64,000 bases of DNA, from positions 96,001 through 160,000 of the forward strand of contig JBMFRC010000001.1 of the NCBI GenBank assembly GCA_049968235.1, written 5' to 3'. The translations under genes were made by a program, and so were the position numbers. Positions 10,678-51,768 of the stretch are shown in pieces; the stretch's first letter is position 1, and every line of letters begins with the position of its first letter. The stretch comes from Candidatus Hydrogenedens sp. (GTDB lineage: Bacteria; Hydrogenedentota; Hydrogenedentia; Hydrogenedentales; Hydrogenedentaceae). The notes beneath the pieces were generated by a model. The model did no database searches. It saw only the letters and a program-made list of their open reading frames with translations, and was not told where the DNA came from.

Positions 10678-10689
10678 TTTTTTCCTACC

Positions 10690-11202: not shown

Positions 11203-11211
11203 AGTATATAT

Positions 11212-21919: not shown

Positions 21920-21922
21920 TTT

Positions 21923-29639: not shown

Positions 29640-31427
29640 TTACATTCCTGCGGGCATTCTCCTTGGTTGAGGAGTTCGTAGTCCGCACGGAATATCAATA
29701 GATTGACTAAACCAGCGCCTGAAATCAGAAACACCGGGCTGCGGCTTTTCGGTACAAACCCAGGCACTGACAGTGATTCTAACTGGTAAACGCTCAAAGA
29801 AAACAGTTGCAAAGGGTGATGTCTGACTGGGGTCTGTCCCTTTCATCTCGGTCCAGACCCTGTCTAAAAAGGCTGTTAAACATTCTGCTTGAGGAACCGT
29901 TAAAGATTCTGGTGGCAAAGAGAGGTAATGGGAGAAAAGAGGGATACTTCGTATATCATTAAAATACATTACGGTCTGGTTTTCTTCTGATTGATACGAA
30001 AAAATATTTCCGGGGAAAAGCATATCTGTTGAAGTTATTAAGCCATTGATTTCATCAATCCAGTAGGCATGAGCCCCAAAGCCATCTGCTAACACATAAT
30101 CCAGCGGGTTCTGTCCATTTGTTTCCCAGAAATTGTATAAGACTTCTGTGTTCGGGTATGGATTACCTGTCCCTCCGGTTAGTAGTTGATACAAATACAT
30201 CTGGTCTCGCCGTGCAATAGATAGGTCATAACTCCAGATATAAGGAGACAAATTTAATATACCTCCCTGACCTGTAATTGCGAGAACATTGGTTGGATTT
30301 CTTAATAGATTAAACCACTCGTTACAGAATTGTCGTGAATTATAAACTTGCATTAATAAAAGTCGTAATTCCGCTTTTCGGATGGTTATTAAATCATTTA
30401 CAAAATTTGTATCAATCGTTTGATAATTAGGATTATTTATGTAATTTCTTAAATCTTTAACAACATTCACAGAAGGGGTCTGAGTTTCTACCGGACTGAC
30501 CATACTCACACCGCTTTGTGTACCCGTTCCTTCAATTATAAAAGCATGTAATAGAGCATCAATAGTCGAATAACCTGTATAGGAAAACGGATTTTCAACC
30601 GTAGACAAATCAGGGTCGGGCATTGATTGGATTGCTGTTCCTGAAGAATCTATAAAACCTTTCTTTAATTCTATATCGATAATGTTTGCTTTTGTAGTTT
30701 CTTCGATACGGAATAAAGCCATTGGTTGAACACGAACGCGATATGCCTGTTCTTCTGATGACAATTGACCAATTACATTTGCCTCAGATTGCACTTCTGG
30801 AAATGGGTCTCCTGTGGTGAGCAGACTATCCAGATTGTTTACGATTGTAGTTACATCACAACCCGCGGGCAAACCCGCCTGAATTTTGGGAAGAATATCA
30901 TCAAAGAAATAAACGGCACTTTCATTGGGAATTTTATTGGCTTCTCGCTTCATTCCCTTTTCTTTGGAAATCCTATCCGGCAAATTATCCTTTGGTCCTA
31001 TTGGTAACCATGTTTCAAATACCGGGATGGATGGACTTGGAGCAAAGAAGTATGTTACTCTTCCTACCTGTCCATTATCCAGCATAGTTACAAAAGTTAA
31101 AGCGGTAGGAGTCCCATAAAATTGGACTTTTTCTCCGCGATTAGCAAGTGTACAAGCCCGTTCCAGATCGCGAGATAATATTTCCATAGCAGACCGTGCA
31201 TTCCCATAACTCTCTTTTACCATGTATCCCTGATGGGTAGATTCGATAGCCGAAACAAACATTGTAACCAGCCCTGTCAAAATAATGGATAATATAGCCA
31301 TCGCCACCACAAGTTCGATAAGTGTCATACCTGTTCTATATTTCGTATCACTTGTATATAACAACTCTACTTGTTTTTTATTGTTGTTCTGTAACATAGG
31401 TAACGAACCTTTCTTCTCTCCCATCAT
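29640..31427 (-). CDS. pilW: PilW/GspJ-family minor pilin (type IV prepilin-like N-terminus), enlarged to about 560-595 aa.
   Basis: The prepilin motif is YRTG|MTLIELVVAMAILSIILTGLVTMFVSAIE, with Glu at +5 after the Gly cleavage site. It continues ...ARSAMEILSRDLERA, as in the PilW family. The real start is probably the internal MLQNNNKK..., since the annotated start overlaps the upstream gene by 50 nt. Confidence 0.55.
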   Translation of the reverse strand: MMGEKKGSLPMLQNNNKKQVELLYTSDTKYRTGMTLIELVVAMAILSIILTGLVTMFVSAIESTHQGYMVKESYGNARSAMEILSRDLERACTLANRGEKVQFYGTPTALTFVTMLDNGQVGRVTYFFAPSPSIPVFETWLPIGPKDNLPDRISKEKGMKREANKIPNESAVYFFDDILPKIQAGLPAGCDVTTIVNNLDSLLTTGDPFPEVQSEANVIGQLSSEEQAYRVRVQPMALFRIEETTKANIIDIELKKGFIDSSGTAIQSMPDPDLSTVENPFSYTGYSTIDALLHAFIIEGTGTQSGVSMVSPVETQTPSVNVVKDLRNYINNPNYQTIDTNFVNDLITIRKAELRLLLMQVYNSRQFCNEWFNLLRNPTNVLAITGQGGILNLSPYIWSYDLSIARRDQMYLYQLLTGGTGNPYPNTEVLYNFWETNGQNPLDYVLADGFGAHAYWIDEINGLITSTDMLFPGNIFSYQSEENQTVMYFNDIRSIPLFSHYLSLPPESLTVPQAECLTAFLDRVWTEMKGTDPSQTSPFATVFFERLPVRITVSAWVCTEKPQPGVSDFRRWFSQSIDIPCGLRTPQPRRMPAGM

Positions 31428-31803
31428 TGAGCCTTACCTTAAAGGTTACCCGATACAACCCTTTACCCATAGGAACGCGTGATGCAGAAGCCCCATAATG
31501 TTGATATAGTTCATAAGCACTGGCGGTTGTTTCTATTTGCTGAAAGGCATTATCTTTTAACCATGAATTTAGACCTGTGGATAAAGCCCCGCCTACACGA
31601 ACACGACTCATTTCTGTTCGTGCTAAATTGGATATATTAGCATTTGCAGATGCATCAATTAATAATTTTTGTGCTGAGGGAAACAATGTGAATATTGCCA
31701 CCAATCCACCTGCAATAATAGCAAGGGCAATAACAATCTCTAAAATAGAGAAGCCTAATTCTTTATTTCTATAATTATTTGTATGTATTATATTTTTTTT
31801 CAT
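31378..31803 (-). CDS. pilV: PilV/GspI-like small minor pilin (141 aa).
   Basis: The prepilin N-terminus is ELGFSILEIVIALAIIAGGLVAIFTLF. It has the small size typical of PilV/GspI and sits between the FimU-like and PilW-like genes. Confidence 0.55.
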   Translation of the reverse strand: MKKNIIHTNNYRNKELGFSILEIVIALAIIAGGLVAIFTLFPSAQKLLIDASANANISNLARTEMSRVRVGGALSTGLNSWLKDNAFQQIETTASAYELYQHYGASASRVPMGKGLYRVTFKVRLNDGREERFVTYVTEQQ

Positions 31804-32684
31804 ATTTCTATCTTTATCCTGCCTGTTACCCGAAACAGATTCAACAAACTCATTTTATGCGTTACCCACAAACTATCCCCAGGGATTTGTCCTTGAATGT
31901 TTTCAGGGAGAATCATAGGTTCTGAGTTAGTCGTATCTACTAATGCAAGAATATATCGTTCTTTTATCATCGTATTAGAAGTGGGAAGAAGTTTTCCATC
32001 CGGTCCAAAAATATGGGCATACCATGAAAATTTAGCACCGGAGTTTAAATATGTTATAGGGGCTTGTGCCGTTTGTTCTAAGTCTAAAAATGGAACTTTC
32101 ACTATGGATAATCCGAGCAAACTCATGGAATTTCCCTCGTCAATAGAACGCAAAATAGGAACTGTCACTGTAAGAGAATTGGGGACAATAACATTTTCTC
32201 GAAACTCTACATTACAAAGAATTACACCCTCTTCAAATCGTTTATTCATACCGTATTCTGATTTAGCCTCAATAGGGACATAAATACTATCCCAATCACT
32301 GGGAAATCCCAATCTATCACGAATATCATCAAAACCTTCATTATTCTTCTTACTAATTTCATACATTACCGCCGCAGAGACCAATGCATGTATATGTCTC
32401 TCCCCTGGAATAACTCCTTGATTTGTTTCTACATTCGTTGTAGGAACGGGCACGAATACATCTCCATATACAACGGCGGTATTCACACGATAGGTCGTAG
32501 CATAGATTTTTGCCACCTGCATAATTTGAGCCAGTTCTCTTGCTGTGCGTTTTACCGGGTCTGTTGCGTCTTTATAAAAGCGGAAAATAGAAGGAATGGA
32601 AATGAGAGTTAACATTCCCACAATTCCCATTACAACCAGTAGTTCCGTTAATGTGTAACCTTGTTTTCTTTTTCTGGCAAACAT
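31800..32684 (-). CDS. fimU: FimU/FimT/GspH-family minor pilin (294 aa).
   Basis: The prepilin N-terminus is KQGYTLTELLVVMGIVGMLTLISIPSIFRFYKDATDPVKRTARELAQIMQVAKIYA. The leading helix followed by 'AR..A..........A' is typical of GspH/FimU. It is the first gene of the minor-pilin set. Confidence 0.5.
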   Translation of the reverse strand: MFARKRKQGYTLTELLVVMGIVGMLTLISIPSIFRFYKDATDPVKRTARELAQIMQVAKIYATTYRVNTAVVYGDVFVPVPTTNVETNQGVIPGERHIHALVSAAVMYEISKKNNEGFDDIRDRLGFPSDWDSIYVPIEAKSEYGMNKRFEEGVILCNVEFRENVIVPNSLTVTVPILRSIDEGNSMSLLGLSIVKVPFLDLEQTAQAPITYLNSGAKFSWYAHIFGPDGKLLPTSNTMIKERYILALVDTTNSEPMILPENIQGQIPGDSLWVTHKMSLLNLFRVTGRIKIEI

Positions 32685-32766
32685 TTTATAACAAGTCTTT
32701 CATATTTAGAAGGGCAATGTATGTTCTACCTTCCCATACATTGCCCTTATATTAGTCAAATATTCA

Positions 32767-33639
32767 TTAACTATAGAAACGCATCCAACTCTGACCGGGG
32801 TCCCAATTATTAATATCATCTCCACCCCCTTTATATTCTTCTTCTTGGTCTGCGTAGTTTGCAGAACCTTGATAATTTCCACCGGGGAGTGGATTTGCCA
32901 AATTAGGATCGTAAACAGCCTGACCTGAAATCATATTAGCACCATTAGACCAGATAAAAGCCAATTTCCCTTTATCTGCGGGGAAACCTACTTCTATTGG
33001 TAAATTGGTTTCCGGGTCTGTTGTTGAAAATGTTAAAGTATCACTTCTTCTCCCACCTGACACACCTGGTAAAGTTTTTTCTTTTTCTCCTAACATATAA
33101 ATACGGAAGGGAATGGGTCCATTTCTTGGAGTCCAGGGACCCGGATAAATATTATACAAATTTCCCCATGGGTCAAAAGCAATATCTTCAAGATAACCAA
33201 CACCAAGTCTCATTACAACATCCTTATCTAAAATATCTGCATATATGATATTTAAATCATTGTCCGTTCTGCCATCCAGTACCCTACGACCTTCTCTTAA
33301 TAATGCGTACAGGGTATTTGTATATAATTTAATAACGGATTGAAATTGCTGGGAGGTCATAATATAAGGTGTATTATCTGCAAAATTAAAAATACTTCTG
33401 CGAATATAATCTGCATCAAACAGATAATTTAAGTTCTGCACATTGGCATCGGTAACCATTTTTGTTAGTGCAAGTTCAATACTTTTAATGTCCCCTAAAG
33501 CCCGTGTAGCTCTCCCTCGAGCAATATACCGGGCAACATTGGGAACTATGATAGCAGCAAGAATTGAGATAATTGCCATCACGACCAATAGTTCTACGAG
33601 TGTAAATCCTTTGTTTCTTTTCATACTGTCTTCCTCCAC
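32767..33639 (-). CDS. Type IV pilin (290 aa). It is a candidate major pilin or an additional pseudopilin.
   Basis: It has the classic class III signal-peptide motif MKRNKGFTLVELLVVMAIISILAAIIVPNVARYIARGRATRALGDIKSIELAL. It lies between pilC and the minor-pilin genes. Confidence 0.6.
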   Translation of the reverse strand: MEEDSMKRNKGFTLVELLVVMAIISILAAIIVPNVARYIARGRATRALGDIKSIELALTKMVTDANVQNLNYLFDADYIRRSIFNFADNTPYIMTSQQFQSVIKLYTNTLYALLREGRRVLDGRTDNDLNIIYADILDKDVVMRLGVGYLEDIAFDPWGNLYNIYPGPWTPRNGPIPFRIYMLGEKEKTLPGVSGGRRSDTLTFSTTDPETNLPIEVGFPADKGKLAFIWSNGANMISGQAVYDPNLANPLPGGNYQGSANYADQEEEYKGGGDDINNWDPGQSWMRFYS

Positions 33640-33763
33640 TCAGGTTTGTAGACGAACTTGTTTTTAATCTCGTCCTTTCTGTTATGAGTTCTTGTAAATA
33701 ATTTAACTGTTACTATATTTATACCACAAATACAGCTTTTGTTGCCGTATTTTTGTCTTATTT

Positions 33764-35005
33764 TTATTGTGTACCATTGATGGTATCTCCGAGTGTAAAT
33801 ATCGGTAAGTATAAGGATACTACAATAAAACCGATAATACCACCTAAAACGATAATAATTGCGGGTTCCATTAATGACAACATAGCCTCGACAGCCGCTT
33901 CTACCTCTGCATCGTAGATGTCTGCTACCTTATGGAGCATAGCATCAAGGCTACCCGTTTCTTCACCTACATCAATCATATTAACGACCATTGCTGGAAA
34001 TACTTTGGTCTGGTCCAGCGGTGCAGCAATTGTATCTCCTTCTTTTACACTATCATGGACTTTATCAACGGCGTCCTGAATAATTTCGTTTCCGATGGTT
34101 TCCTTTGTAATTTTTAATGCCTGTAAAATAGGTACACCGGAAGTAATTAGCGTTCCTAATGTTCGGGCAAATCGTGCCACAGCTACTTTAGTAACCAAAT
34201 CCCCAATTAAAGGCAATTTTAGAACAACCCGGTCCCGAAATCGTCGAACTGCATGAAATTTAAAAAGAATTTTTATAAAAATAATCGTCCACGATACAAT
34301 GGCAATAAGCATCCACCAGTTATATATCATAAAGTCCCCGGCTTTCATAAGAAATTGTGTTGGCCAGGGTAATTGTCCTCCGAATTCTTTGAAAATGTCT
34401 GCAAAAACAGGGACGACTTTTATTAACAGAAACATCACAATGGCCGAAGCGATAATAAGAACGGCAATAGGATAAATCATGGCGGATTTTACACGTCGTT
34501 TTAATGCTTCTCTTCGTTCCATAAATTGTGCTATTCGTTGAAGCACAATTTCTAACATACCACCAACTTCACCCGCTTTAACCATATTTACAAAAAGGCG
34601 GTCAAATTGCTTGGGATGTTTTGCCAATGCTTCGGAAAATGTGCTACCTGACTGAATATCCGTTGATATTTCTCGTAAAATATCCTTTAATTTACTGGGT
34701 TTCATTTGCGCAATCAGCACATTCAGGCTTCGTAGTAACGGCAAACCTGCATCAATCAGGGTAGATAATTGGCGTGTCATAACCACAAGTTGTTTGGTCT
34801 TTACGCCACCGAAATAGAGTTCGCTTAATCCTTTCTTCTCACCTCTTGCCCTTCGCTCATCACTCCGACGGGCTTCACGGACGTGTGTGGGAAACAGTCC
34901 TAAACTTCTTACATCATTAATCGCAAGGGCAACACTATCCGCTTGGATAATACCAAAGATTTCTTTTCCTTCACGATTAATTGCTCGATAAGCATATTTA
35001 GGCAT
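33764..35005 (-). CDS. pilC: Type IV pilus inner-membrane platform protein PilC (GspF family).
   Basis: It has two T2SSF repeats (LSTLIDAGLPLLRSLNVLIAQ... and LGTLITSGVPILQALKITKETIGN...) and three TM segments. Its 413-aa size is typical. It follows the PilB gene. Confidence 0.85.
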   Translation of the reverse strand: MPKYAYRAINREGKEIFGIIQADSVALAINDVRSLGLFPTHVREARRSDERRARGEKKGLSELYFGGVKTKQLVVMTRQLSTLIDAGLPLLRSLNVLIAQMKPSKLKDILREISTDIQSGSTFSEALAKHPKQFDRLFVNMVKAGEVGGMLEIVLQRIAQFMERREALKRRVKSAMIYPIAVLIIASAIVMFLLIKVVPVFADIFKEFGGQLPWPTQFLMKAGDFMIYNWWMLIAIVSWTIIFIKILFKFHAVRRFRDRVVLKLPLIGDLVTKVAVARFARTLGTLITSGVPILQALKITKETIGNEIIQDAVDKVHDSVKEGDTIAAPLDQTKVFPAMVVNMIDVGEETGSLDAMLHKVADIYDAEVEAAVEAMLSLMEPAIIIVLGGIIGFIVVSLYLPIFTLGDTINGTQ

Positions 35006-35022
35006 GGTTCCAATTCCTTTTT

Positions 35023-36801
35023 TTAATCTTCATAATAGTCTGTATGGGCTATCACTTCTTTTGCAGAAGTAACACCCTGAACACATTTTATTATACCTTC
35101 CTCGCGTAATGTTCGCATACCTAATTTCTTTCTCGCATATCTACGAATATCATACGCCATTGCACGGTCTAAAATCATTTCACAAACAGTTTCATCTACC
35201 TGTAAAATTTCAAATAAACCTGTTCTGCCCATATAACCAATATAATCACATGCGGGGCATCCTTTGGGTCGGAACAATTGAAGTTTCGGGTCATCCTGCC
35301 AATTTTTCGGTAAGCCTAATTCTTGCATCTCTTCTTTTGATGGACGATACCGTTCTCTGCAATGCCTGCAAAGACAACGCACCAACCGTTGTGCCAATAC
35401 CGCCTCTAAGGAAGCGGTTATCAGGTAGGGTTCAACATCCATATCCAGTAGACGGGTAATTGTTTCAGGAGCACTATTGGTATGCAAGGTACTTAACACA
35501 AGGTGCCCTGTTAATGATGCCTCTACTGCAATTTGTGCCGTTTCAAGGTCACGGATTTCACCGACCATTACAATATCCGGGTCCTGACGCAAGATAGAAC
35601 GCAAACCTGCTGCGAAGGTTAGTCCTACTTCTTCATTTACCTGACATTGCATTACCCTATCTATTTGCAATTCTACGGGGTCTTCCATCGTAATAATTTT
35701 TACTTCTTCGCTATTTAATTTTGCAATACACCCATATAAGGTAGTTGTCTTTCCTGAACCCGTAGGACCTGTAACTAACAAGATACCATTAGGACGGGCT
35801 AAAACATCATCCAACTTTGCTTTTACATTTTCACTTAACCCTAAACGGTCTAAATCGATACGGACCGCAGTTCGGTCCAAAATACGCATTACCACTCCTT
35901 CACCATACAATGTAGGAAGTGTCGCAACACGGATATCTATAATACTATCCCCAACTTTCAATTCAATACGCGAGTCTTGTGGTAATCGTCGTTCACCAAT
36001 ATCCATATTACACATAATTTTTACACGGGATACTAATGCAATTGCTAAAGTCTTGGGAGGATTGACAATTTCATGCAGAACGCCATCTACACGGATACGA
36101 ATACGAAAACGGTCTTCATATACTTCAAAATGAATGTCGGACGCCCTTTTCTTTACCGCTTCTAAAAATACCAGATTAACGATTTTAATAACTTCGGGCA
36201 ATTGTGCCAATTCCACCAAATTTTCAGTATCTTTGACAATTTCCTGTGTTCCCAATTCTTCAAGAGATAAATCTGAAGAACCTACTTTATCCTGCAATTC
36301 GGAAATCATCTCATGGATAGAATCGGTTTCGAAGGAATAATTATTTTTCCATGCGATGGCAATATCCTGCGGATTGCTAATAGCCCCCCGAACAGGCTGA
36401 CCGGTAATATGTCGTAAATCATCTAAAATTTGTAAATTTAAGGGGTCTGCCATTGCCACTACAAGGACACCATCTACCTCTTTGATAGGAATAACATTGT
36501 AAAAGCGAGCCACATCAGACGAAATTTTTCGTATAATATTTTCGGGGATTTTCAGTCGGGTAACATCAATCTTTTCCATCCCCAGTTGTGTTCCCAGCGC
36601 CTCGACAATTGCTTGCTCATCGCAATAGCCCATAGATACCAGCACACGACCTAAGAAATCGCCTGTTAATCGCTGTCGCTGGAGTGCTTCGTCCAATTGA
36701 AGTGGAATAATTATTCCCTGTTCTACCAGAATATCACCTAATCGACGCTGGTTAATTTGTGTGGTCTTTGTTTGACTGTGTTTCGCTAATGCACTTGACA
36801 T
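35023..36801 (-). CDS. pilB: Type IV pilus extension ATPase PilB (GspE family), with an N-terminal T2SSE_N domain.
   Basis: It has the Walker A motif [16 protein letters not shown], Asp and His boxes (DPDIVMVGEIRDLETAQIAVEASLTGHLVLSTLHTNSA), and the tetracysteine motif CRHCRERY...CPACDYIGYMGR. Confidence 0.85.
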   Translation of the reverse strand: MSSALAKHSQTKTTQINQRRLGDILVEQGIIIPLQLDEALQRQRLTGDFLGRVLVSMGYCDEQAIVEALGTQLGMEKIDVTRLKIPENIIRKISSDVARFYNVIPIKEVDGVLVVAMADPLNLQILDDLRHITGQPVRGAISNPQDIAIAWKNNYSFETDSIHEMISELQDKVGSSDLSLEELGTQEIVKDTENLVELAQLPEVIKIVNLVFLEAVKKRASDIHFEVYEDRFRIRIRVDGVLHEIVNPPKTLAIALVSRVKIMCNMDIGERRLPQDSRIELKVGDSIIDIRVATLPTLYGEGVVMRILDRTAVRIDLDRLGLSENVKAKLDDVLARPNGILLVTGPTGSGKTTTLYGCIAKLNSEEVKIITMEDPVELQIDRVMQCQVNEEVGLTFAAGLRSILRQDPDIVMVGEIRDLETAQIAVEASLTGHLVLSTLHTNSAPETITRLLDMDVEPYLITASLEAVLAQRLVRCLCRHCRERYRPSKEEMQELGLPKNWQDDPKLQLFRPKGCPACDYIGYMGRTGLFEILQVDETVCEMILDRAMAYDIRRYARKKLGMRTLREEGIIKCVQGVTSAKEVIAHTDYYED

Positions 36802-36831
36802 ATTACAAACTTTCTTTTATGTCTTCTTAAA

Positions 36832-37941
36832 CTATGCAACTTCTCCTTCTTTCTTGGGAGCAGGTCCACCTTCAATACCCAAAGCACGCGCAGCCGCTTC
36901 AAATTCATCCGGCATCTGTGCTTTGGCAAGGCAGTCTTCATATTTGCAAATACCCTTACGATACAGGGCAAGTAGATGTTCATCCAGCAAATTCATACCA
37001 TACTTATGTCCCGTCTGAATAGCGGATGTAATACGATAGGTTTTATTTTCACGAATTAAGTTTTGAATAGCAGGGGTACAATACATAATTTCATACGCAG
37101 CCACACGACCAAAACCACTTTTCCGGGGGACAAGAGTCTGGGAAATCACTGCTTTTAAGTTACCTGCTAACTGGGTCCGAATTTGTTCCTGCTGGTTTGA
37201 TGGGAAAGCGTCCACGACACGGTCTACCGTTCTCACCGCACCTGTGGTGTGAAGGGTTGCGAATACAAGGTGCCCCGTTTCGGCTGCGGTAATTGCCGCT
37301 TCGATAGTTTCGAGGTCACGCATTTCCCCGACGAGAATTACATCCGGGTCCATACGCAATGCTCTTCTCAAAGCCTCTGCGAAAGTCGGTACATCTACAC
37401 CTACTTCACGCTGGGTAATAATTCCTTTTTTATGGGTGTGATAGTATTCTATTGGGTCTTCAATAGTAATAATATGAGAATCTAAATTAGTATTAATCCA
37501 ATCAAGCATGGTAGCCAATGTTGTTGTTTTTCCGGAACCCGTGGGTCCTGTAATCAGAACCAATCCACGCGGTTGTCGGAGTAAGTTTTCTATATGTCGG
37601 GGCAAACCTAATTCTTCAAAAGTTAGTATTTTGCGAGGGATTAGTCGCAATACGATACCTACATACCCCTTTTGTTTAAAAATAGCCACACGGAAACGTG
37701 CAATATCCTCAAATGCGAAACCGAAGTCAGAACCACCTACTTCTTGCAATTCTTGTTGATTATCTACAGAAGCAATACTTTTCATTAATCGTTCGGTATC
37801 TTCGGGCGTTAATGGGTCTTCACCAAAGAAAACCAATCGACCGTGAACTCTTCCCACAGGAGGATTATCCACCGCAAGATGTAAGTCAGAGCCTTCACGG
37901 TCTATCAACATCCGCAATAAACTTACCATTTCATAAGCCAT
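36832..37941 (-). CDS. pilT: Twitching-motility retraction ATPase PilT.
   Basis: The whole 369-aa protein is close to canonical PilT: [77 protein letters not shown] and AIQNLIRE. The size is typical. Confidence 0.9.
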
Positions 37942-37963
37942 ATATGTATCTCCTTATATTCAA

Positions 37964-39805
37964 TTATACTGCAACAGCAGGTTTGCGAAGAGGTTCATCA
38001 ATTCGTGTCCGTTTATTAACTTCTTCGACTGTAGTAATACCCATAGTCGCTTTACGCCATGCATCTTCACGCATGGTGGACATTCCCGATAAGCGGGCTT
38101 CTCTTCGAATTGCCGTCGCGGACTCTCCTCGCATGACCATTTCACGAATACGGTCTGTCGTTTGTAACAATTCATAAACGCCCAATCGTCCTTGATAACC
38201 CGTCTGATTACAATTGTCACAGCCCGCACCATGATATAACTCAATTGTAGAGAGGTCTACAGGAAAACCCAATCGGCGAATTTCAAATTCCGGAGGAACG
38301 CAGGGTTCTTTACAAACAGTGCAAATTGTTCTCACCAATCGTTGAGCAAGTATTGCGCGAATACCGGATGCCACAAGGAACGGTTTCACGCCGATATCCA
38401 CCAATCGGGTAAATGCGGTAGCGGTATCATTGGTGTGTAATGTTGAGAAAACCAGATGCCCTGTTAATGCGGCTTTAATAGCAATTTCAGCAGTCTCTAA
38501 GTCACGGATTTCACCGACCATTACAATATCGGGGTCCTGGCGGAATATAGCACGCAAAGCCCGGGCAAAATCCCAGCCAATTTCATGGTTGATTTGCACC
38601 TGATTAATCCCTGTAATTTGATACTCCACAGGGTCTTCTAAAGTAATAATTTTTACATCGGGCTGATTTAGATTATGGAGAGAAGCATAAAGGGTGGTGG
38701 TCTTCCCTGAACCTGTAGGTCCCGTAACCAGAACAACACCTGTAGCATGCTGAATTATTCGCTCCCAATTGTTTTGGACCTCTGGACTAAAGCCTAACTG
38801 CCCCAAACCTAACATAAGCCCGCTTTTGTCAAGAATACGCATAACGACACTTTCACCGAACACAGCTGGCAGAGAACTCACACGAAGGTCTATCACTTTA
38901 TTCCCTAATGTCATTTTGATTCGTCCATCCTGTGGAACCCGCCTTTCGGAAATATCCATCCCTGCCATAATTTTAAGTCGGGATATAATAGCTGCCTGTG
39001 CCCGTTTGGGGGGTAACGGCATTAAATGCATTACACCGTCTATACGATACCTTACTTTTACATCGGTTTTTCCAGGTTCGATATGTATATCACTTGCTCG
39101 TAAACGAAATGCTTCTAATATCATCTGATGAACATACTTTACCACAGGATTATCTGCATCCCCTTCTTCCATACCTTCTGTTGTTATGGATGTAGAAGGA
39201 AGATTCGCATCATCCATACTAACACTGCTTAAAGAAATATCGCTGGCACTAAAACTTGATGAAGAAGCCAAGGAACTATCAAACGAACTTACATTGGACA
39301 TCGAAGATAAGGAACTTACACTGCTGGCACTACTCGCAGAACTTAACAAGCTCTCTACTGTGGCTTCATGAACTCCATAATATTTCCCTAAAGCCATCGT
39401 TATTTCCTCAGGAGAAGCAAGAACTGGCTCTATGGGACGGTCAAGAAGTCGGGAAATATTATCCAGATTATTGACATTGGTCGGGTCCGATGTCGCAATA
39501 ATAACTTTATCCCCTCGCACTTCCACAGGCACTACTTTATAAAGTGTCGCTATGCTTCCATCCATAATATTACGAACACGCTCCGGCACATCCCTCTCAC
39601 TTAATTTTATTATAGGAATACCTAATTGTTCCGATAATGTCTCGATAATATGACTTTTGCTGATATACCCTAAACGAACAAGGATTTCTCCTATTTTTCG
39701 ATGCGACATCGTTGTTTGCTGGCGATGTATTGCTTCTCGAAGTTGCTCTTCGGATATTATTTTCTTCTCAACAAGTATCTGACCGAATAACTTATAAGTA
39801 CTCAT
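37964..39805 (-). CDS. pilB: Second PilB/GspE-family ATPase. It carries a serine-rich low-complexity linker between the T2SSE_N domain and the ATPase core.
   Basis: It has the Walker A motif [17 protein letters not shown], the core DPDIVMVGEIRDLETAEIAIKAALTGHLVFSTLHTND, and the Cys motif CTVCKEPC...CDNCNQTGYQGR. The insert reads SLLSSASSASSVSSLSSMSNVSSFDSSLASSSSFSASDISLSSVSMDDANLPSTS. Confidence 0.85.
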   Translation of the reverse strand: MSTYKLFGQILVEKKIISEEQLREAIHRQQTTMSHRKIGEILVRLGYISKSHIIETLSEQLGIPIIKLSERDVPERVRNIMDGSIATLYKVVPVEVRGDKVIIATSDPTNVNNLDNISRLLDRPIEPVLASPEEITMALGKYYGVHEATVESLLSSASSASSVSSLSSMSNVSSFDSSLASSSSFSASDISLSSVSMDDANLPSTSITTEGMEEGDADNPVVKYVHQMILEAFRLRASDIHIEPGKTDVKVRYRIDGVMHLMPLPPKRAQAAIISRLKIMAGMDISERRVPQDGRIKMTLGNKVIDLRVSSLPAVFGESVVMRILDKSGLMLGLGQLGFSPEVQNNWERIIQHATGVVLVTGPTGSGKTTTLYASLHNLNQPDVKIITLEDPVEYQITGINQVQINHEIGWDFARALRAIFRQDPDIVMVGEIRDLETAEIAIKAALTGHLVFSTLHTNDTATAFTRLVDIGVKPFLVASGIRAILAQRLVRTICTVCKEPCVPPEFEIRRLGFPVDLSTIELYHGAGCDNCNQTGYQGRLGVYELLQTTDRIREMVMRGESATAIRREARLSGMSTMREDAWRKATMGITTVEEVNKRTRIDEPLRKPAVAV

Positions 39806-39880
39806 ATTCTATATCCATGTTTTCTCTATATACTTTAACATAATTTTAAACAAAAATCAATGTTAAAAATGCGGATTTAG

Positions 39881-39914
39881 TTATAATTACATAAAAAATA
39901 TATTTTGATGTCAA
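39881..39914 (-). promoter_or_regulatory. Candidate promoter for the pilB-pilT-pilB-pilC-pilin operon on the minus strand. The -35 box is a perfect TTGACA.
   Basis: Reverse-complementing 39880-39914 gives TTGACAtcaaaatatattttttatGTAATTATAAc. TTGACA is followed, after a 17-nt spacer, by TGTAAT, and TATAAC follows after 23 nt. These lie in the 213-nt intergenic gap between the gspM-like stop and the pilB start at 39805. The -10 box is ambiguous. Confidence 0.3.
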
Positions 39915-40018
39915 TAATTTATTACAAATCTTTGTGACCCCTATTTATTTTTATATCTTCTATTATATATTATAAAAGTCAGGCGAACCTTTTTTACAAT
40001 ACGAAAATATGGTTTTTC

Positions 40019-40531
40019 TTATTTTAATGTTACAAGGGTTAATTCGCAATCAATGCCTTTCCCGCTTTGATTGGGTTTTAATTTATCCATTTTATACACA
40101 GCTAATAAATAGGAATCGTCATAAATACGCTTTAAGAATTCGGAAAACCGTTTTAAGGACACCCCTTCTAGTTTAATTTGCACCATCGGTTGGCGGGAAC
40201 TACTTGCTCGTGCACGATAATTATCAAGTTTGGCTCTATCGGTTAATTGAGTTTCTTTGAGTAATTGGTTCACATAGGAAAAGAAGTCAAAATTTGGAGG
40301 TCTCTTTTCTATTATACGAAGTAACATTTCCTGAGTTTTTAAACTTTCTTCTTGTTCTTTCTTTAGTTTCTCTACCATTTGCAATTGATTATATGATTGA
40401 GTTAGTTCATTTCTGGATTGCAAAAATTTTCGATAAGGTCCTCTATGGAGATATATTGCCATGCTTATAACAGCGATAAAACTCACAATCATTGTAATTA
40501 AATAAATTCGATCAAGAAGAGTTTGGTTCAT
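40019..40531 (-). CDS. gspM: GspM-like bitopic inner-membrane protein, assigned by position and topology.
   Basis: It is 170 aa long, with one N-terminal TM helix (IYLITMIVSFIAVISMAIYL) and a periplasmic coiled-coil/alpha-beta region. It is the last gene after the gspL-like gene in an otherwise canonical gspC-M array. No family-specific motif was recognised. Confidence 0.35.
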   Translation of the reverse strand: MNQTLLDRIYLITMIVSFIAVISMAIYLHRGPYRKFLQSRNELTQSYNQLQMVEKLKKEQEESLKTQEMLLRIIEKRPPNFDFFSYVNQLLKETQLTDRAKLDNYRARASSSRQPMVQIKLEGVSLKRFSEFLKRIYDDSYLLAVYKMDKLKPNQSGKGIDCELTLVTLK

Positions 40532-40548
40532 TTTCTCTACCTCATTTG

Positions 40549-42108
40549 TTATTTTTTCTCTGCACTGGTTTGAGGTGAAGCATTATTTTTTTGTGGGAGC
40601 GAAGACTTTTGTACTTTTTGTATTCGTATTGCAAAACTGGTTTGATTTCCTTGAGCACTTAATTCTGGCTCATCCACAATATTAAAATAACTTACCTTCT
40701 TTAATTCAGAAATCGCCTGATTTATAAAAGCGGAATCGCCGGTTGTTCCCTGTATTCGAATCCACCAACTTTGCACATCAGGCGAACTTAATTTAATTTC
40801 TGTAATATTCACTTTATCCGAGGGCAGTTTTTCGGCAATGGTATTTAGTATATCCAGAAGAGGGGGGTCAAAGAAGGGAGATAAATCTATATTCTCATCC
40901 AGCCCTTTCTCCTGATTAACTCGATCTATTTCCTGGGTTAATTCATTTGCCTTTGCTTTATATAGATTACTATAAACAAGATTATTTAGTGTTAATTGTT
41001 GAAGGAAAAAGGCACCGCATACAAGCCCGGTCAGGATAAGACAATTGGTAAATATCAAATGACGGGATAAAGAGGATAAATAGGAATATAAGGATTGGTT
41101 TTCTTTTAGCAAATTAAATGAAAAGTAGGGGTCTAATGTTATTCCTGCTATACCCATGAGAGGATACCAGCGGGAAAGTGATTCCTCGGATTCTGCTTTC
41201 ATAGTATTTGGGAAAAGTAAAGATTGAGATAAAGAAACAGGCTCCACTTCCATCTTTACCAATCGTGAAAAAACACCTATCTCTTCATCGGATAAAGATA
41301 ATCCACTAATTTCTAATTTTTCTATTCCTTCTTTACTTTTCCATCGGGCAAGAAATGCTCTTAGGCTATTTTGTACTTCCCGGGCAAAAATTTCAGGATT
41401 CTCATAATAATTCTGAACACCTAATACCAGATGCCGTATAAAAACGAGTTTTCCTTCGTAAAGAACAGCAAGCGTAGAGAAATCTTTATGAACCACCAAA
41501 GCAGATTTTAATTTTTTTGTTTCTTTGCTTGCCTTTTCCCAGAGATATACTAAACCGAGTGAATTAATAACTGCAGTTTCGGGTTCTACAGAAAATTCCC
41601 GTAGGTATTGGATATAGTTTTGTATATGCTGTTTGCGGACACCCATCGTCAATACTTCTGTCTCTTTTTTTGTTTCATTCACCACAGTAAAATCAAGCAT
41701 TAACTCTTCAATGGGGAAAGGAATATGGGGTTCTAATTCAAAGCGAAGAGCAGACACTACTTTCTTCATTCCCCGAAATGGAACTGTTAATGACCGCACG
41801 ATACTTACAGAACACGGAACGGAAAGGGCAAAACATGTTGGTTTATGTTTTAATTGTTTAAAGGCTTCCTCTAATGCATTCAATACAGGTTCATCTTTAT
41901 TGGGCGTTTCTTCTGCTGAAATTACAGGCACTTCAATATCTTGAAGTAATTCAAGATTTTTACCTTTTTTTCGAACGGTTGCTAATCGAACCACATTTTC
42001 GCAAATCTCAATTGTTGTTACCAAATTTCCCATGTGTCTTTCTTTCGTTTTTATGGCTTTTATGGCTATATATTTTTTATTTTTCCCTATTATTTTATAA
42101 CTTTCCAA
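40549..42108 (-). CDS. gspL: GspL-like protein. It has a cytoplasmic actin-like domain, a single TM helix and a periplasmic domain, and may be a PilM/PilN-type fusion.
   Basis: The topology matches. The N-terminal about 300 aa are soluble (LVTTIEICENVVRLATVRKKGKNLELLQDIEVPV...). The TM helix is LIFTNCLILTGLVCGAFFLQQL and a C-terminal domain of about 170 aa follows. It sits between gspK and the gspM-like gene. The annotated start overlaps gspK by 19 nt, so the alternative start MGNLVTT (about 42033) is plausible. Confidence 0.5.
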   Translation of the reverse strand: MESYKIIGKNKKYIAIKAIKTKERHMGNLVTTIEICENVVRLATVRKKGKNLELLQDIEVPVISAEETPNKDEPVLNALEEAFKQLKHKPTCFALSVPCSVSIVRSLTVPFRGMKKVVSALRFELEPHIPFPIEELMLDFTVVNETKKETEVLTMGVRKQHIQNYIQYLREFSVEPETAVINSLGLVYLWEKASKETKKLKSALVVHKDFSTLAVLYEGKLVFIRHLVLGVQNYYENPEIFAREVQNSLRAFLARWKSKEGIEKLEISGLSLSDEEIGVFSRLVKMEVEPVSLSQSLLFPNTMKAESEESLSRWYPLMGIAGITLDPYFSFNLLKENQSLYSYLSSLSRHLIFTNCLILTGLVCGAFFLQQLTLNNLVYSNLYKAKANELTQEIDRVNQEKGLDENIDLSPFFDPPLLDILNTIAEKLPSDKVNITEIKLSSPDVQSWWIRIQGTTGDSAFINQAISELKKVSYFNIVDEPELSAQGNQTSFAIRIQKVQKSSLPQKNNASPQTSAEKK

Positions 42109-43364
42109 TCCAAAATACGGAATGGCTCTGGAGGTAGCCCTCCTTGATTTTGGACTGTTGTGGAATTATTGTTTGTTCGTTGCATATTTCGAGTTAAATT
42201 TTGTTGATTTGTTTTGTTGGTAGCAGGGTTTATGTTGGGGTTCAGTCCTGAGTTACTGACATCACCTAACTCCATAGGATTACGGAAGACATACGTTTCA
42301 ATTCGCACCATTCTTTTTTGATAAAGCCCATCACCATATATTCGAAAAGCATTGCTCTGGAGAGTAAAAATTTGTCCTGACATAACATAGCGTTGAGTGC
42401 GATTATCCGGTCTTTCGGCAGGTGTAATAACTGGTTTCCCTGCTTGTTGGGGAGTATTTCTTCTCTGTGTTGTCGGTGGTTTGGGTAAAATACCATAGGC
42501 ATCTAGTTGGCTTAAATCTGTAAACGGTTGTGTATGTGCATCATCAAAAATTCGCTGTCCTAAACCTAAATCTGCGGGATTTCCTGTATAACCACTGACA
42601 ATTGCTGCTATTACTTCAGGTTGGGCAGAATTAATGTTTACCCTACCCAGCCAATCTCCATGAACAGTAAAATATTCCGATAGAGGTAACTGATTCTTCT
42701 CCGGGTCACCAAAATATATTTCCGGTGTAATTCCTTTAATCAACAGCAATTCCTCGATTGAATCCATAGGACCATTCTTACATGAGTATGGATTTTCCAA
42801 TCCCATATAATAATCGTTCTCTGCTCCTTGAGGTCTTTCAGAATCGCCCTCATTGTAATCTAACCAGTCGAGAATAGAATCAACAATAATATCCGGACTG
42901 GCACCTTTTCCTGTATCACGTAAGGCAAAAAATTCTTTTAAAGCATTAACTAGAGGTGTCCGTTCTTGAGGTTCTCCTCCAGATTGTGGAACCAGTAAAG
43001 CATTCAAATTTATTTTCCCATATTCATCTGATATTGAAGCATGCATAAGAGCATTATTTAATGGCTCTGTTCCTGCACTCATATTAAAAGAAAGAAGGTC
43101 AAAATCGCTATCTATGGGTGGAGCACCACTCATCATGGTATTTAAATTATCCTCTGCAAGATATGCAATTGCTTTAGCCACTGCAGATTTCGCAGCCAGA
43201 TACGCTTCCAGGTCTCCCTGTTGACTATATGCTAAAGAAGCCTCAACTTCTGCCTCATATAAAAATTCAACTACAATAATGGACAGTAAAGCGATAAATA
43301 CTAATGCAAGAATAATGGCTACTCCTGTCCTTTTGCAAAGTTGAATTTTCGATTTTAATTTCAT
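42090..43364 (-). CDS. gspK: Type II secretion minor pseudopilin GspK.
   Basis: The N-terminus KRTGVAIILALVFIALLSIIVVEF matches the GspK 'RGxALxxVLxxxALL' start, which lacks the +5 Glu. The C-terminal GITPEIYFGD...VNINSAQPEVIAAIV corresponds to the GspK helix-hairpin-helix 'iNiNtA' motif. It lies between the gspJ-like and gspL-like genes. Confidence 0.7.
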   Translation of the reverse strand: MKLKSKIQLCKRTGVAIILALVFIALLSIIVVEFLYEAEVEASLAYSQQGDLEAYLAAKSAVAKAIAYLAEDNLNTMMSGAPPIDSDFDLLSFNMSAGTEPLNNALMHASISDEYGKINLNALLVPQSGGEPQERTPLVNALKEFFALRDTGKGASPDIIVDSILDWLDYNEGDSERPQGAENDYYMGLENPYSCKNGPMDSIEELLLIKGITPEIYFGDPEKNQLPLSEYFTVHGDWLGRVNINSAQPEVIAAIVSGYTGNPADLGLGQRIFDDAHTQPFTDLSQLDAYGILPKPPTTQRRNTPQQAGKPVITPAERPDNRTQRYVMSGQIFTLQSNAFRIYGDGLYQKRMVRIETYVFRNPMELGDVSNSGLNPNINPATNKTNQQNLTRNMQRTNNNSTTVQNQGGLPPEPFRILDWKVIK

Positions 43365-43372
43365 GGTAATTT

Positions 43373-44260
43373 TTACCTTCTATTTCTGAACTTATCGCGT
43401 GCAGTAGTATTCGGAGTTGCACCTTTGGTTTTATTGCTATCCATCTTAAACAGGGAACCGACATCCCGGAAATGATTGGGGTCATCCATAGGTTGGACTG
43501 TTCCTACTGTTGTAGGTAGAACAATCACAAGGTCTATATCTCCTTCCCCATTTGCAGAGGCGTTGTTGACATCTCCATATTCATCAAATAGGTTCGCAAT
43601 AATATGTACCGCCCATGGCATCTGTTGAACTGATAGCGAATCCCATTCTTCTACCCAATCCTGTTTAATGGGGTCATAATAATAGATGTCTAACGAAGCA
43701 AGCGGAACTTTTATTACATTTACAGGCAGAGAATTAATATCGCTCGAAAAGCCACCGGATTCTTCATCCAGAATAAGTGGTGATTCTGTAATAGTCAAAA
43801 ATTGGGGAGCGTTATTTGAAATACCATATATATCTGTGGCAAAGCCCGACAGACCTTCAGGTGGAGATGTATCCTCAAAAGAATAGGTAACTACCCTACG
43901 AATACCCGGTAAGGCAGTGGGTCCTGGCATCGGTAATGAAGTGCAAAAACGGATGGAATCCGCAGGTCCATACTGTCCTGATTCGTTTTTTCCTATAAAT
44001 TGATAACCCGAAGAGGAATAGGAAGAGTCGATATACAGGGCATTAAAAGAATTGAAAAAATGATTTACTAAGAATCGTTGTATCCTCATTTTTTCCGCCG
44101 ATAACCGTGCTAAATCAGTCCCTTTTGATATAGAATCCAACCCTAAATAAACAATGATTACGATAATAGACATTATGGTAAAAGCAATGAGCAACTCCAG
44201 AAGTGTGAAACCATTGGCTTTTTTAGGGTAAGGATATTTATTTTCTTTTTTAATCCACAT
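43373..44260 (-). CDS. gspJ: GspJ-like pseudopilin (295 aa).
   Basis: The prepilin motif is KANGFTLLELLIAFTIMSIIVIIVYLG. It is followed by ...LARLSAEKMRIQRFLVNHF, typical of GspJ/PilW-family minor pseudopilins. It lies between gspI and gspK. Confidence 0.55.
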   Translation of the reverse strand: MWIKKENKYPYPKKANGFTLLELLIAFTIMSIIVIIVYLGLDSISKGTDLARLSAEKMRIQRFLVNHFFNSFNALYIDSSYSSSGYQFIGKNESGQYGPADSIRFCTSLPMPGPTALPGIRRVVTYSFEDTSPPEGLSGFATDIYGISNNAPQFLTITESPLILDEESGGFSSDINSLPVNVIKVPLASLDIYYYDPIKQDWVEEWDSLSVQQMPWAVHIIANLFDEYGDVNNASANGEGDIDLVIVLPTTVGTVQPMDDPNHFRDVGSLFKMDSNKTKGATPNTTARDKFRNRR

Positions 44261-44263
44261 AAA

Positions 44264-44827
44264 TTAATTTCCCAACAGGGAATTCCTTCTTGCAGAGAAG
44301 CCACTGGCAGGGGCTTTCATAGGGTTTGTAGTTCCTCCTCGATTGGTTTTATTGGTATCACCGGTTAAATCATTTGTTTGATTTTCCATAGTCAGGTCAT
44401 AACACAAAAAGGTCAAGTTTTTGCTTTCATTCTCCGGAGTGTATAAGGTTACATTTACAGAATATAAGAGAATAGATGGGTCAGAACCTATTGCAGTGGC
44501 AGAATAACTCCATGAGTAGCCTTCATAACTTGTTCCGAAATCGCCATTTCCTTCCAGTGTCCCCGTCAGCACTCCTATTTCTGCACGGGAGCAAGCCGCA
44601 TAAACCAATTGATTTTCATCTGTCTGATTTATAGTAATCTGGTGAAGTTTCATTGCATTAAAGTAGACATTAAACAGAATAAAAGCGGAACCTCCTAAGA
44701 TGGCTAATGCCGTCAAAATCTCCATCAGCGTGAAACCAACTTTTGTTTTTTTATCTTTTATAGCGAATAAAAATATTTTCATTGGGCTCCTTCCAGCACA
44801 TAAGCACCTGCGGAAACAGGGTCCCAT
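44264..44827 (-). CDS. gspI: GspI-like pseudopilin. The probable true start is MKIFLF... at about 44782, which gives about 172 aa.
   Basis: The prepilin motif is KTKVGFTLMEILTALAILGGSAFILFNVY. With the internal start, the overlap with the upstream gene is 4 nt, indicating translational coupling. It lies between gspH and gspJ. Confidence 0.5.
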   Translation of the reverse strand: MGPCFRRCLCAGRSPMKIFLFAIKDKKTKVGFTLMEILTALAILGGSAFILFNVYFNAMKLHQITINQTDENQLVYAACSRAEIGVLTGTLEGNGDFGTSYEGYSWSYSATAIGSDPSILLYSVNVTLYTPENESKNLTFLCYDLTMENQTNDLTGDTNKTNRGGTTNPMKAPASGFSARRNSLLGN

Positions 44828-45597
44828 ACAACGGTATAATAATCATTATTTGCGTTTCTTACATAAAAACCAATTGATTCTGTTAACCCGAGAGGTGTTA
44901 CAGGTATTTCTACAAGACCTCTGGAAAACTTATTTCCACCGATAAAAACGCTTTCAATCGTTATATTTTCGGACAAACGAACCGGAGATAGACCCGGTTC
45001 ATTGACTTCTTCTATTACTGGCTCTATATTAAATATATCCACATTATTCTTTTTATCAAAAAGAGGTCCTATCTCATCCATTAGGCTATCTTCATGTTTC
45101 ACATTTTTTGCTTGTTCTATTAATTTCCTTTTTGCCAATTTTTCAAATCGGTCATTAATCTGTCGGTTCATGGCTTCTGTATCAAAACCTCCTGGAGCAG
45201 GAGTGTTTCTCGTGTTTTTTGTAGTGCCTGTTCCCGTAGCAGAATTCATAAAAAGTTCTGCCATTTGTTCCGGGGACATGCCCTGCTCTTTCATACTTTC
45301 AAACAGCCCTAATTGGTCTTGTTCTCCCTCATTTGCCTCAGGATAAGTAACTTTTAAACAATAATATTTCTGTTGGTCTAAATCAATTTCTACATAGAAT
45401 TCATCTCCCAATAAAGCGGATGTTGACATTACTGCTCTACCGAAATATGCTAATCGCCTGGCTTCGCTTTCCAACTCCGAAGATAATGCAAGGGGAAGCA
45501 AATAAGGAACAGTAATAGTTGCCATTAAGGCAATAATAAAAATAACAATCCCCAATTCAAGCAATGTAAAGCCATCTTTTCCCCGTAAAGCAACCAT
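44779..45597 (-). CDS. gspH: GspH-like pseudopilin (272 aa).
   Basis: The prepilin motif is GKDGFTLLELGIVIFIIALMATITVPY. It continues ...ESEARRLAYFGRAVMSTSA (GspH/FimT 'AR..A' helix). It lies directly after gspG. Confidence 0.55.
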   Translation of the reverse strand: MVALRGKDGFTLLELGIVIFIIALMATITVPYLLPLALSSELESEARRLAYFGRAVMSTSALLGDEFYVEIDLDQQKYYCLKVTYPEANEGEQDQLGLFESMKEQGMSPEQMAELFMNSATGTGTTKNTRNTPAPGGFDTEAMNRQINDRFEKLAKRKLIEQAKNVKHEDSLMDEIGPLFDKKNNVDIFNIEPVIEEVNEPGLSPVRLSENITIESVFIGGNKFSRGLVEIPVTPLGLTESIGFYVRNANNDYYTVVWDPVSAGAYVLEGAQ

Positions 45598-45642
45598 AAT
45601 TTTAATATTTATACCTCATGCAAAAAATAATATCCTGCGGAA

Positions 45643-46038: not shown

Positions 46039-46041
46039 GTT

Positions 46042-47280: not shown

Positions 47281-47327
47281 ATTTTCTCAAAATATTATAA
47301 AGGGGTGTTTTTTTTCTTGCTTTCTTT

Positions 47328-51724: not shown

Positions 51725-51768
51725 GTTTCAACTCCTAATATATAAATATTTGTTGTTCATATCTATAA

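Follow-up and report, generated by a model that had tools for sequence, protein, structure and literature searches.

A pilB-pilT-pilB-pilC cassette shared by Candidatus Hydrogenedens and several other phyla as a candidate dual extension-motor module of a type IV pilus

The analysis of a 64,000-nucleotide stretch of a Candidatus Hydrogenedens sp. genome (assembly GCA_049968235.1, contig JBMFRC010000001.1, positions 96,001 to 160,000; hereafter, the window) revealed a run of four consecutive genes in which two PilB-like ATPases flank a single PilT retraction ATPase and are followed by a single PilC-type platform protein. We hold it probable that this run constitutes a cassette of two extension motors that serve one platform, as part of a type IV pilus machine resembling those of the PVC group (here Planctomycetota, Verrucomicrobiota, and Lentisphaerota). 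The extension of type IV pili has long been assumed to need a single PilB motor, and the PilB/TfpB pair of Acinetobacter, which was the first exception, has been regarded as unusual. The cassette described here occurs in at least four phyla and persists in loci devoid of pilT, which suggests that dual extension motors are standard across much of bacterial diversity. The original prediction for this region had proposed two distinct extension motors from the gene arrangement, a proposal that gains support from the apparently ancient origin and monophyly of each of the two paralogs and from their fixed order beside a single pilC gene.

All genes of the pilus cluster, as well as those of an adjoining type II secretion system (T2SS) cluster, lie on the minus strand. 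The run at the head of the pilus cluster, separate from the T2SS cluster, comprises A613 (37964-39805; 613 amino acids, aa), the PilT retraction ATPase (36832-37941; 369 aa), A592 (35023-36801; 592 aa), and a PilC/GspF-type protein with two T2SSF domains (33764-35005; 413 aa), which is the sole platform of the cassette. These same-strand genes are separated by gaps of 22, 30, and 17 bp, and the four are probably co-transcribed. Hereafter, A613, encoded upstream of pilT, and its counterparts are designated U-type, and A592, encoded between pilT and pilC, and its counterparts D-type. A third ATPase, A579 (47328-49067; 579 aa), is encoded between gspD and gspF in the T2SS cluster. The prediction of three GspE-superfamily ATPases with a tetracysteine motif was confirmed on the respective open reading frames (ORFs): A613, A592, and A579 all matched T2SSE (Pfam; E-values from 1e-135 to 1e-143) in addition to MshEN, and all conserve the Walker A motif GPTGSGK[TS] and two CxxC pairs. 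The tetracysteine zinc motif is formed by C495, C498, C529, and C532 in A613 (38210-38323) and by C478, C481, C515, and C518 in A592 (35248-35370), the latter being invariant across the D-clade alignment, and the CxxC pairs of A579 correspond to C464, C467, C499, and C502. The single PilT previously proposed was likewise borne out by its score with the PilT/PilU model TIGR01420 (461.1 bits versus a cutoff of 319.1), by its AIQNLIRE sequence, and by its lack of CxxC pairs, as were the two platform proteins (33764-35005 and 46042-47280), both of which harbor T2SSF domains.

The three ATPases exhibit pairwise identities of 40-44% over their full length. When compared with family models, A579 passed the cutoff of the GspE model (TIGR02533; 691.8 bits versus 630.25), with A592 and A613 falling below it (594.1 and 587.8 bits). 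Because A579 passes this cutoff and sits inside the GspC-D-E-F-G…K-L cluster, outside of which A613 and A592 are found, the T2SS has its own motor, in agreement with what had been proposed. None of the three passed the PilB model (TIGR02538; cutoff 675.65), with which A613, A592, and A579 scored 635.1, 601.6, and 626.1 bits, respectively. The comparison with TfpB was made through the NCBIfam profile NF053534 (cutoff 850), which none of them passed either (A579, 495.3 bits); orthology of A613 or A592 with TfpB was rejected, given that their scores of 488.3 and 452.9 bits are far under the cutoff. The solved structures closest to A613 and A592 were the PilB proteins of Geobacter and Myxococcus and the PilF of Thermus (E-values from 1e-139 to 1e-148), followed by the Vibrio GspE and, far behind, by PilT (approximately 1e-33). 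The alignments to the Geobacter and Myxococcus proteins cover the full length, and these structure matches suffice to assign the fold. Both proteins also present the PilB architecture, in which the N1 (GSPII/MshEN) and N2 domains precede the C-terminal domain (CTD), and both are encoded in a PilB-type genomic context including pilC, pilT, pilM, pilQ, and pilin genes. The best database matches of A592 were proteins from metagenome-assembled genomes (MAGs) of Candidatus Hydrogenedentes/Hydrogenedens, with identities of 70-97%, and these taxon names recur in the GTDB loci that have the same genes.

The Walker A motif, the Asp box, the Walker B Glu, the His box, the N2-domain arginines, and the four Cys residues are kept across the whole U and D clades. 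A search for clade-specific substitutions at otherwise invariant positions returned none for the D clade and two for the U clade (L→F and, ahead of the His box, E→K), neither of which is located at a known catalytic position. A PilT/PilU identity for A613 or A592 was rejected on the basis of their N1 domain, their four Cys residues, their low TIGR01420 scores (180.4 and 175.6 bits, both below the cutoff), and their phylogenetic separation from PilT with a bootstrap of 100%. Hence, this separation, in combination with the matches to PilB structures and the conserved motifs, indicates that both flanking genes encode proteins that are, as judged from sequence, assembly-type ATPases and not PilT/PilU. 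The expectation that neither of them would be of the PilU or PilT type has therefore withstood the phylogenetic analysis.

To survey the conservation of this arrangement, 80 loci from GTDB species representatives were collected and their ATPase, PilT, and platform genes classified. The order U-PilT-D-PilC was present in 19 of the 20 informative GTDB loci. All the GTDB loci of Hydrogenedentota share it, and the same order was observed in Verrucomicrobiota (L011, L023, L029, L032, and L034) and Planctomycetota (L012, L013, and L027); the loci from Nitrospirota, Bacillota, Deltaproteobacteria, and others display the ordinary pilB-pilT-pilC order. A metagenome sample contributed ten further U-PilT-D-PilC loci, along with five in which U and D, with or without PilC, occur in the absence of pilT, separated by 16-43 bp (L086, L090, L127, and L147) or by about 650 bp (L093); no pilT remnant was detected by tblastn in these five. 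Of the 35 loci in which the D-type gene is preceded by sufficient sequence, 34 encode a U-type ATPase upstream of it, at a distance of one or two genes. Wherever the locus is long enough, PilC comes after the D-type ATPase, and U was never observed without D on contigs of adequate length. The two paralogs are also equally constrained, with identities of 64-75% among the Hydrogenedentota orthologs.

One of the pilT-less loci, L127, matches with 100% identity Victivallis vadensis, a member of the Lentisphaerota from the human gut that is available in culture. According to independent gene calls, the U (574 aa), D (562 aa), and PilC (419 aa) of this organism form an isolated trio with one platform. 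Housekeeping genes flank the cassette (L163, 8261-13001), with ThiI on its upstream side and a mannose-1-phosphate guanylyltransferase-like gene on its downstream side, and no pilT, pilin, or secretin genes were found nearby. In the U-type proteins of three pilT-less loci (L127, L086, and L090), RQAPNII replaces the usual RQDPDI(V/I) before the Walker B Gly-Glu; the D-type partners in the same cassettes retain RQDPD. In the planctomycete Rhodopirellula baltica, co-induction of pilT (RB12773), pilB (RB12774), and pilC (RB12781) under salt stress has been reported (PMC2754498). The order of these genes fits that of PilT, D, and platform, from which we infer that RB12774 is a D-type ATPase.

This distribution bears on the possibility that the second PilB is just a recent, redundant, and lineage-specific duplicate or an artifact of assembly. 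Nothing speaks for it beyond the presence of two similar genes, and both a local duplication and an artifact are refuted by the mutual identity of only 40% and by the orthologs that each gene has at the same position in three other phyla, as well as by the recurrence of the arrangement in dozens of assemblies obtained independently. We therefore give this possibility hardly any credence.

Phylogenetic trees were obtained by neighbor joining on Kimura distances, with 100 bootstraps and five PilT outgroups, from which the GspE/PilB group was split with a bootstrap of 100%. The D copies, including A592 and spanning Hydrogenedentota, Verrucomicrobiota, and Planctomycetota, were monophyletic in 84 of the 100 replicates with full-length sequences and in 94 with the N2 plus CTD core. 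Likewise, the U copies from the same three phyla, including A613, were monophyletic in 72 and 87 replicates, respectively. The clade of Vibrio and Escherichia coli GspE (100%) includes neither U, D, nor A579, and the clade in which Myxococcus and Geobacter PilB group with Deltaproteobacteria and Nitrospirota (100%) leaves both U and D outside. Additionally, a cross-phylum test was carried out with U and D profiles made exclusively from Planctomycetota and Verrucomicrobiota sequences. All 12 D and all 13 U copies of Hydrogenedentota scored 22-69 bits higher with the profile of their own type, as exemplified by A592 (676.5 with the D profile versus 632.6 with the U profile), and A579 exhibited no preference between the two. 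On this evidence, U and D are ancient paralogs, each of them monophyletic across phyla.

The T2SS-like cluster adjoining the cassette is self-contained (40019-52731), its distance to A613 being 213 bp. It runs from GspC (51769-52731) through the GspD secretin (49067-51724), A579, the T2SSF-containing GspF platform (46042-47280), GspG (45643-46038), three pseudopilin-like genes corresponding to minor pseudopilins, GspK (42090-43364), and a PilM/PilN/GspL-like protein (40549-42108) to a final 170-aa protein. Two complete machines are accordingly encoded in the window. The T2SS is furnished with an ATPase, a platform, and a secretin of its own; in the separate pilus system, the two PilB-like ATPases are combined with single copies of PilT, the platform, PilM, and the secretin. 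Because the T2SS is equipped in this manner and the pilus has a separate PilM/PilQ set, neither of the two PilB-like genes is needed elsewhere.

This gene content is relevant to the view that U and D serve different machines and are merely co-located. D and PilC would then form a GspE-GspF-like pair for secretion or a pseudopilus, and U and PilT would belong to a separate retractile pilus or, in Hydrogenedentota, assist the T2SS. Extension ATPases are indeed generally machine-specific (PMC11656802), and the D-type proteins of Planctomycetota are named "type II secretion system ATPase GspE" by NCBI. The PilC of the cassette also lies just over the cutoff of the GspF model (428.4 versus 424 bits), scoring 427.1 bits with the Myxococcus-type PilC model, and it shares 36% identity with the GspF of the window. 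One locus (L016) retains D-PilC without U-PilT, and homologs of the T2SS cluster are found directly upstream of U in most Hydrogenedentota loci. However, the cassettes of Planctomycetota and Verrucomicrobiota have housekeeping genes upstream and no T2SS, and are followed by pilin-like genes of roughly 300 aa, which places the T2SS neighbor as a Hydrogenedentota-specific feature outside the conserved unit. Moreover, the isolated U-D-PilC of Victivallis has a single platform, the T2SS of the window already has its GspE and GspF, D does not group with the proteobacterial GspE, and U never occurs without D on contigs of sufficient length. We thus regard a division of U and D between machines as unlikely.

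The N-terminal domains were inspected for cyclic diguanylate (c-di-GMP) motifs. All three ATPases of the window passed the model of the MshE-type c-di-GMP-motif domain (NF053729; cutoff 38), with 63.5 bits for A592, 60.9 for A613, and 64.1 for A579, which makes them putative c-di-GMP binders. The region in A613 (39626-39787; aa 7-60) is a variant form, with xFG instead of RLG and a 7-aa spacer. In A592 (36586-36744; aa 20-72), the motif is a tandem of RLGDILVEQG…Q and FLGRVLVSMG…Q with a 5-aa spacer between them, and the N-terminal alignment indicated that this 24-residue tandem motif is essentially canonical. These comparisons relied on alignment, as a strict MshEN regular expression overlooked many obvious motifs. 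Given that all three ATPases carry the MshEN domain and that the A613 motif is only slightly variant, different regulatory inputs are little supported. The motifs are also degenerate in the U and D copies of Verrucomicrobiota alike, and differential c-di-GMP input is therefore not a conserved rationale.

A Ser-rich linker had been noted in one of the two PilB-like proteins, and it was indeed found in A613 only, at about residues 147-219 (39149-39367). It follows a (hydrophobic-Ser-Ser)n pattern whose triplets repeat about eight times (LSS ASS ASS VSS LSS MSN VSS …) and which is not random low complexity; on the linker DNA, Tandem Repeats Finder detected no tandem repeat. The linker is present in 13 of the 13 Hydrogenedentota U copies, with 65-79 aa and a Ser plus Thr fraction of 0.23-0.46, and is present neither in the U copies of Planctomycetota and Verrucomicrobiota, in which the linker spans 33-42 aa, nor in any D copy. 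It is, by this distribution of predicted proteins, a phylum-specific addition, which might act as a regulatory or phosphorylation segment and does not account for the conserved pairing of U and D.

These features could alternatively be taken to mean that one paralog is mainly a regulator, for instance a checkpoint controlled by c-di-GMP or by phosphorylation, through which the other ATPase would be gated or other pathways would be signaled to. The presence of an MshEN c-di-GMP-type domain in every window copy is in line with this idea, the conserved linker of A613 could be a phosphorylation target, and a signaling role of the Myxococcus xanthus PilB toward exopolysaccharide production is reported (PMC5544727). 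Nevertheless, the strict conservation of the catalytic residues throughout both clades, across great evolutionary depth, suggests that both predicted proteins turn over ATP. Neither the motifs, degenerate in Verrucomicrobiota, nor the linker, restricted to Hydrogenedentota, explains the pairing. Such a regulatory role for one of the copies seems to us very doubtful.

A further alternative places U and D in one mixed ring, such as an alternating U3D3 hexamer, which would fit the pseudo-sixfold face of PilC arising from its two homologous cytoplasmic domains per monomer. Such partners would be expected to co-occur strictly, in a fixed order, with short gaps between their genes and under equal constraint, as the two paralogs do, and natural fusions of two PilB-type modules of approximately 1010 aa in other lineages show that a 1:1 stoichiometry is workable. 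Hetero-oligomers of PilB and TfpB have been raised as a possibility in a review that also presents the model of a PilC trimer whose monomers face six ATPase protomers with two cytoplasmic domains each (PMC11656802). On the other hand, the solved rings of PilB, GspE, and PilT are all homohexamers, the only kind listed among the structure matches, PilT and PilU have been shown to be separate homohexamers (PMC6821130), and the fused double-PilB proteins are not of the U or D type. A mixed ring accordingly appears quite improbable. We grant no greater likelihood to its broader formulation, in which U and D are obligate partners in one heteromeric motor, either as a U3D3 ring or as two rings that are stacked or coupled, in keeping with the repeat of two domains in PilC, ancestral to the PVC group and Hydrogenedentota, with pilT as an optional insert. 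If true, it would represent a new architecture for type IV filament motors.

The fused proteins (P0191, P0213, and P0215; L165, 7326-10367) are tandem fusions in which N1-N2-CTD is followed by N2-CTD, each module bearing a Walker A motif and four Cys residues. Their locus is on a contig of low guanine-cytosine content, with no PilC gene called within about 8 kb. That they result from a fusion of U and D was rejected, since their two halves match other lineages. In another arrangement, a Nitrospirota-like metagenome contig (L139, 4304-7716) encodes two full-length PilB-like proteins of 563 and 574 aa whose genes overlap by 4 bp; no PilT or PilC was detected there within 6 kb, and assembly ATPases may have become paired independently in this case.

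Turning back to the favored reading, two extension motors on one platform, A613 (U) and A592 (D) would be two non-redundant, catalytically competent, hexameric assembly ATPases of the PilB type. Both would dock on the same PilC/PilM base and power the assembly of the filament in distinct ways, and PilT would take subunits off the filament. As an example of the division of labor, one motor could start assembly on a tip complex of minor pilins and the giant protein described below, and the other could elongate the filament processively; alternatively, U and D could respond to different signals. Given that D is always directly upstream of pilC and sometimes occurs without U, it would be the platform-proximal partner, with U as an obligatory second motor. 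We infer a shared platform, a role in extension for both ATPases, and a division of labor between them from the gene content, the intact motifs, the orthology of each paralog across phyla, and a gene order that holds even in loci without pilT.

The genes following the cassette are compatible with the first of these divisions. Four pilin-like genes with class III signal peptides (29640-33639), encoding proteins of 290, 294, 141, and 595 aa, match N_methyl/TIGR02532 and have N-termini such as GFTLVELLVV, and their homologs are syntenic in other Hydrogenedentota loci. They are succeeded by two giant ORFs (15998-29533) encoding 2536 aa (21923-29533) and 1973 aa (15998-21919). The 2536-aa protein has a hydrophobic, GspK-like N-terminus and a weak match to the Lamin-tail domain, with no Pfam match for its first 90 residues, and its homolog comes after the pilin genes in L001, L006, L008, L009, and L043. 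These features make it a candidate tip pilin or minor pilin of giant size, or else a candidate adhesin. Since large pilins (290-595 aa) and, just after the minor pilins, this conserved protein with a GspK-like N-terminus are encoded in the pilus cluster, it would be reasonable for one motor to prime assembly on a bulky tip complex, in line with the priming role suggested earlier.

Several points weigh against two extension motors sharing one platform and have moderated our confidence in it. The adjacency of U, D, and pilC is no proof of a shared platform. In addition, L016, from Pirellulales, is the exception to the U-D pairing, with D-PilC and no U-PilT within 8 kb upstream, so that the D type may work alone. 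The trees are based on neighbor joining rather than on maximum likelihood; their deep backbone is not resolved, the sister grouping of U and D in the core tree reaches just 34% support, and the position of D shifts between the two alignments. A generic profile built from 62 other ATPases also scores at least as high as the clade-specific ones. Lastly, differential control by c-di-GMP does not appear to be a good general explanation for the conservation of the pair.

The remaining genes of the pilus cluster lie farther downstream. Between the giant ORFs and the PilM-like gene, there is a gene for a PEGA/FGE-sulfatase protein. The PilM-like protein (12180-14270; 696 aa) matches PilM_2 (5e-47) and passes the pilM model TIGR01175 (174 bits versus a cutoff of 133), and it exhibits a C-terminal extension of about 350 aa. 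The PilM/secretin block (7420-14270) also encodes two small proteins of 323 and 170 aa and ends with a PilQ-like secretin containing tetratricopeptide repeats (7420-10677; 1085 aa; Secretin, 2e-35). The scan for promoters and terminators in 33500-40700 gave numbers of sites not above those for shuffled sequence, and it detected no minus-strand terminator in the 213 bp that precede A613. Upstream of the T2SS cluster, an 805-aa protein (52915-55332) with weak matches to metallopeptidases (M10/M43) and EF-hands and a protein of 2765 aa containing PKD and IPT/TIG domains (55399-63696) may be secreted substrates or surface proteins.

Among the collected loci, L004 and L007/L066 are labeled as uncultured Nitrospirales, and their cassette genes are 65-79% identical to those of the window. 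The taxon labels of MAGs are those of their depositors, and these MAGs may be mis-binned or mislabeled. Two Hydrogenedentota genomes (L046 and L077), as well as the Nitrospirales-labeled L066, which is from the same MAG as L007, carry an additional and ordinary PilB-PilT locus, whose ATPase falls outside the cassette clades and groups with L021 (100% support). Consequently, Hydrogenedentota genomes can hold at least four ATPases of the GspE/PilB type.

The literature searched contained no account of a cassette with the order pilB-pilT-pilB-pilC or pilB-pilB-pilC. The main evolutionary study of type IV filaments recognized only the PilB/PilT and PilT/PilU duplications; Planctomycetes and Verrucomicrobia are not named in it, and mixed "generic" systems were left out of its scope (PMC6668835). 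The automatic annotation of U and D proteins is also inconsistent, naming them PilB, GspE, or TadA. The division of labor, the choice between separate rings and a hetero-oligomer, and the exchange of motors on PilC become testable questions in cultured organisms, among which Victivallis vadensis carries the minimal U-D-PilC set and Rhodopirellula and other planctomycetes are candidate carriers.

A comparison with known systems situates the cassette among other type IV filament machines. The best NCBIfam match of the PilM-like protein is Amuc_1101 and the secretin matches Amuc_1098, both from the Amuc_1098-1102 cluster of Akkermansia muciniphila. These family matches fit a PVC-type pilus and suggest kinship with this pilus-like cluster of Verrucomicrobiota, although the scores are far under the cutoffs (276.8 versus 650 and 142.5 versus 750, respectively), denoting a distant relationship. 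As to the MshE of Vibrio cholerae, all three window ATPases match the MshE-related NF053729, and A592 has a near-canonical tandem motif with the 5-residue spacer. Unlike MshE, however, they are not accompanied by an MSHA (mannose-sensitive hemagglutinin) gene cluster, as judged from the gene content of the window, and the motif is degenerate in the Verrucomicrobiota orthologs. The PilT/PilU pair resembles the U/D pair in being ancient tandem paralogs of the same superfamily encoded by contiguous genes. In PilT/PilU, the accessory motor depends on the primary one, and both act on the retraction side and lack the N1 domain and the zinc motif, whereas the window pair is on the assembly side.

The canonical pilB-pilT-pilC operon, as in Myxococcus xanthus, Geobacter, Nitrospirota, and Bacillota, contains the same gene families, and its order differs only in lacking the extra ATPase. 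The solved structures closest to the window copies are also the Geobacter and Myxococcus PilB, and the MshEN-type N-domain and nearby PilM/PilQ and pilin genes are shared. The window differs by having a second PilB-type gene, the D-type one, between pilT and pilC, and by copies that are outside the Myxococcus/Geobacter PilB clade and under the TIGR02538 cutoff.

Two extension motors on one pilus have an experimental precedent in Acinetobacter baylyi, where PilB and TfpB serve one type IVa pilus, both being needed for normal piliation and neither being interchangeable with the other (PMC8213720; reviewed in PMC11656802), and where a split between initiation and processivity has been proposed (PMC8213720). 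As in the window, this comprises two phylogenetically distinct full-length PilB-type ATPases in one pilus system that also has PilT. The phylogeny of TfpB homologs in that study was confined to Gammaproteobacteria (PMC8213720). The window pair, which is not orthologous to TfpB, is conserved in Hydrogenedentota, Planctomycetota, Verrucomicrobiota, and Lentisphaerota. The window pair also differs in being known here from genes alone and in being encoded in one cassette, flanking pilT and beside pilC. The PilB/TfpB pair of A. baylyi is thus the only experimentally studied analog, to which the window pair is analogous but evolutionarily distinct and operon-encoded.

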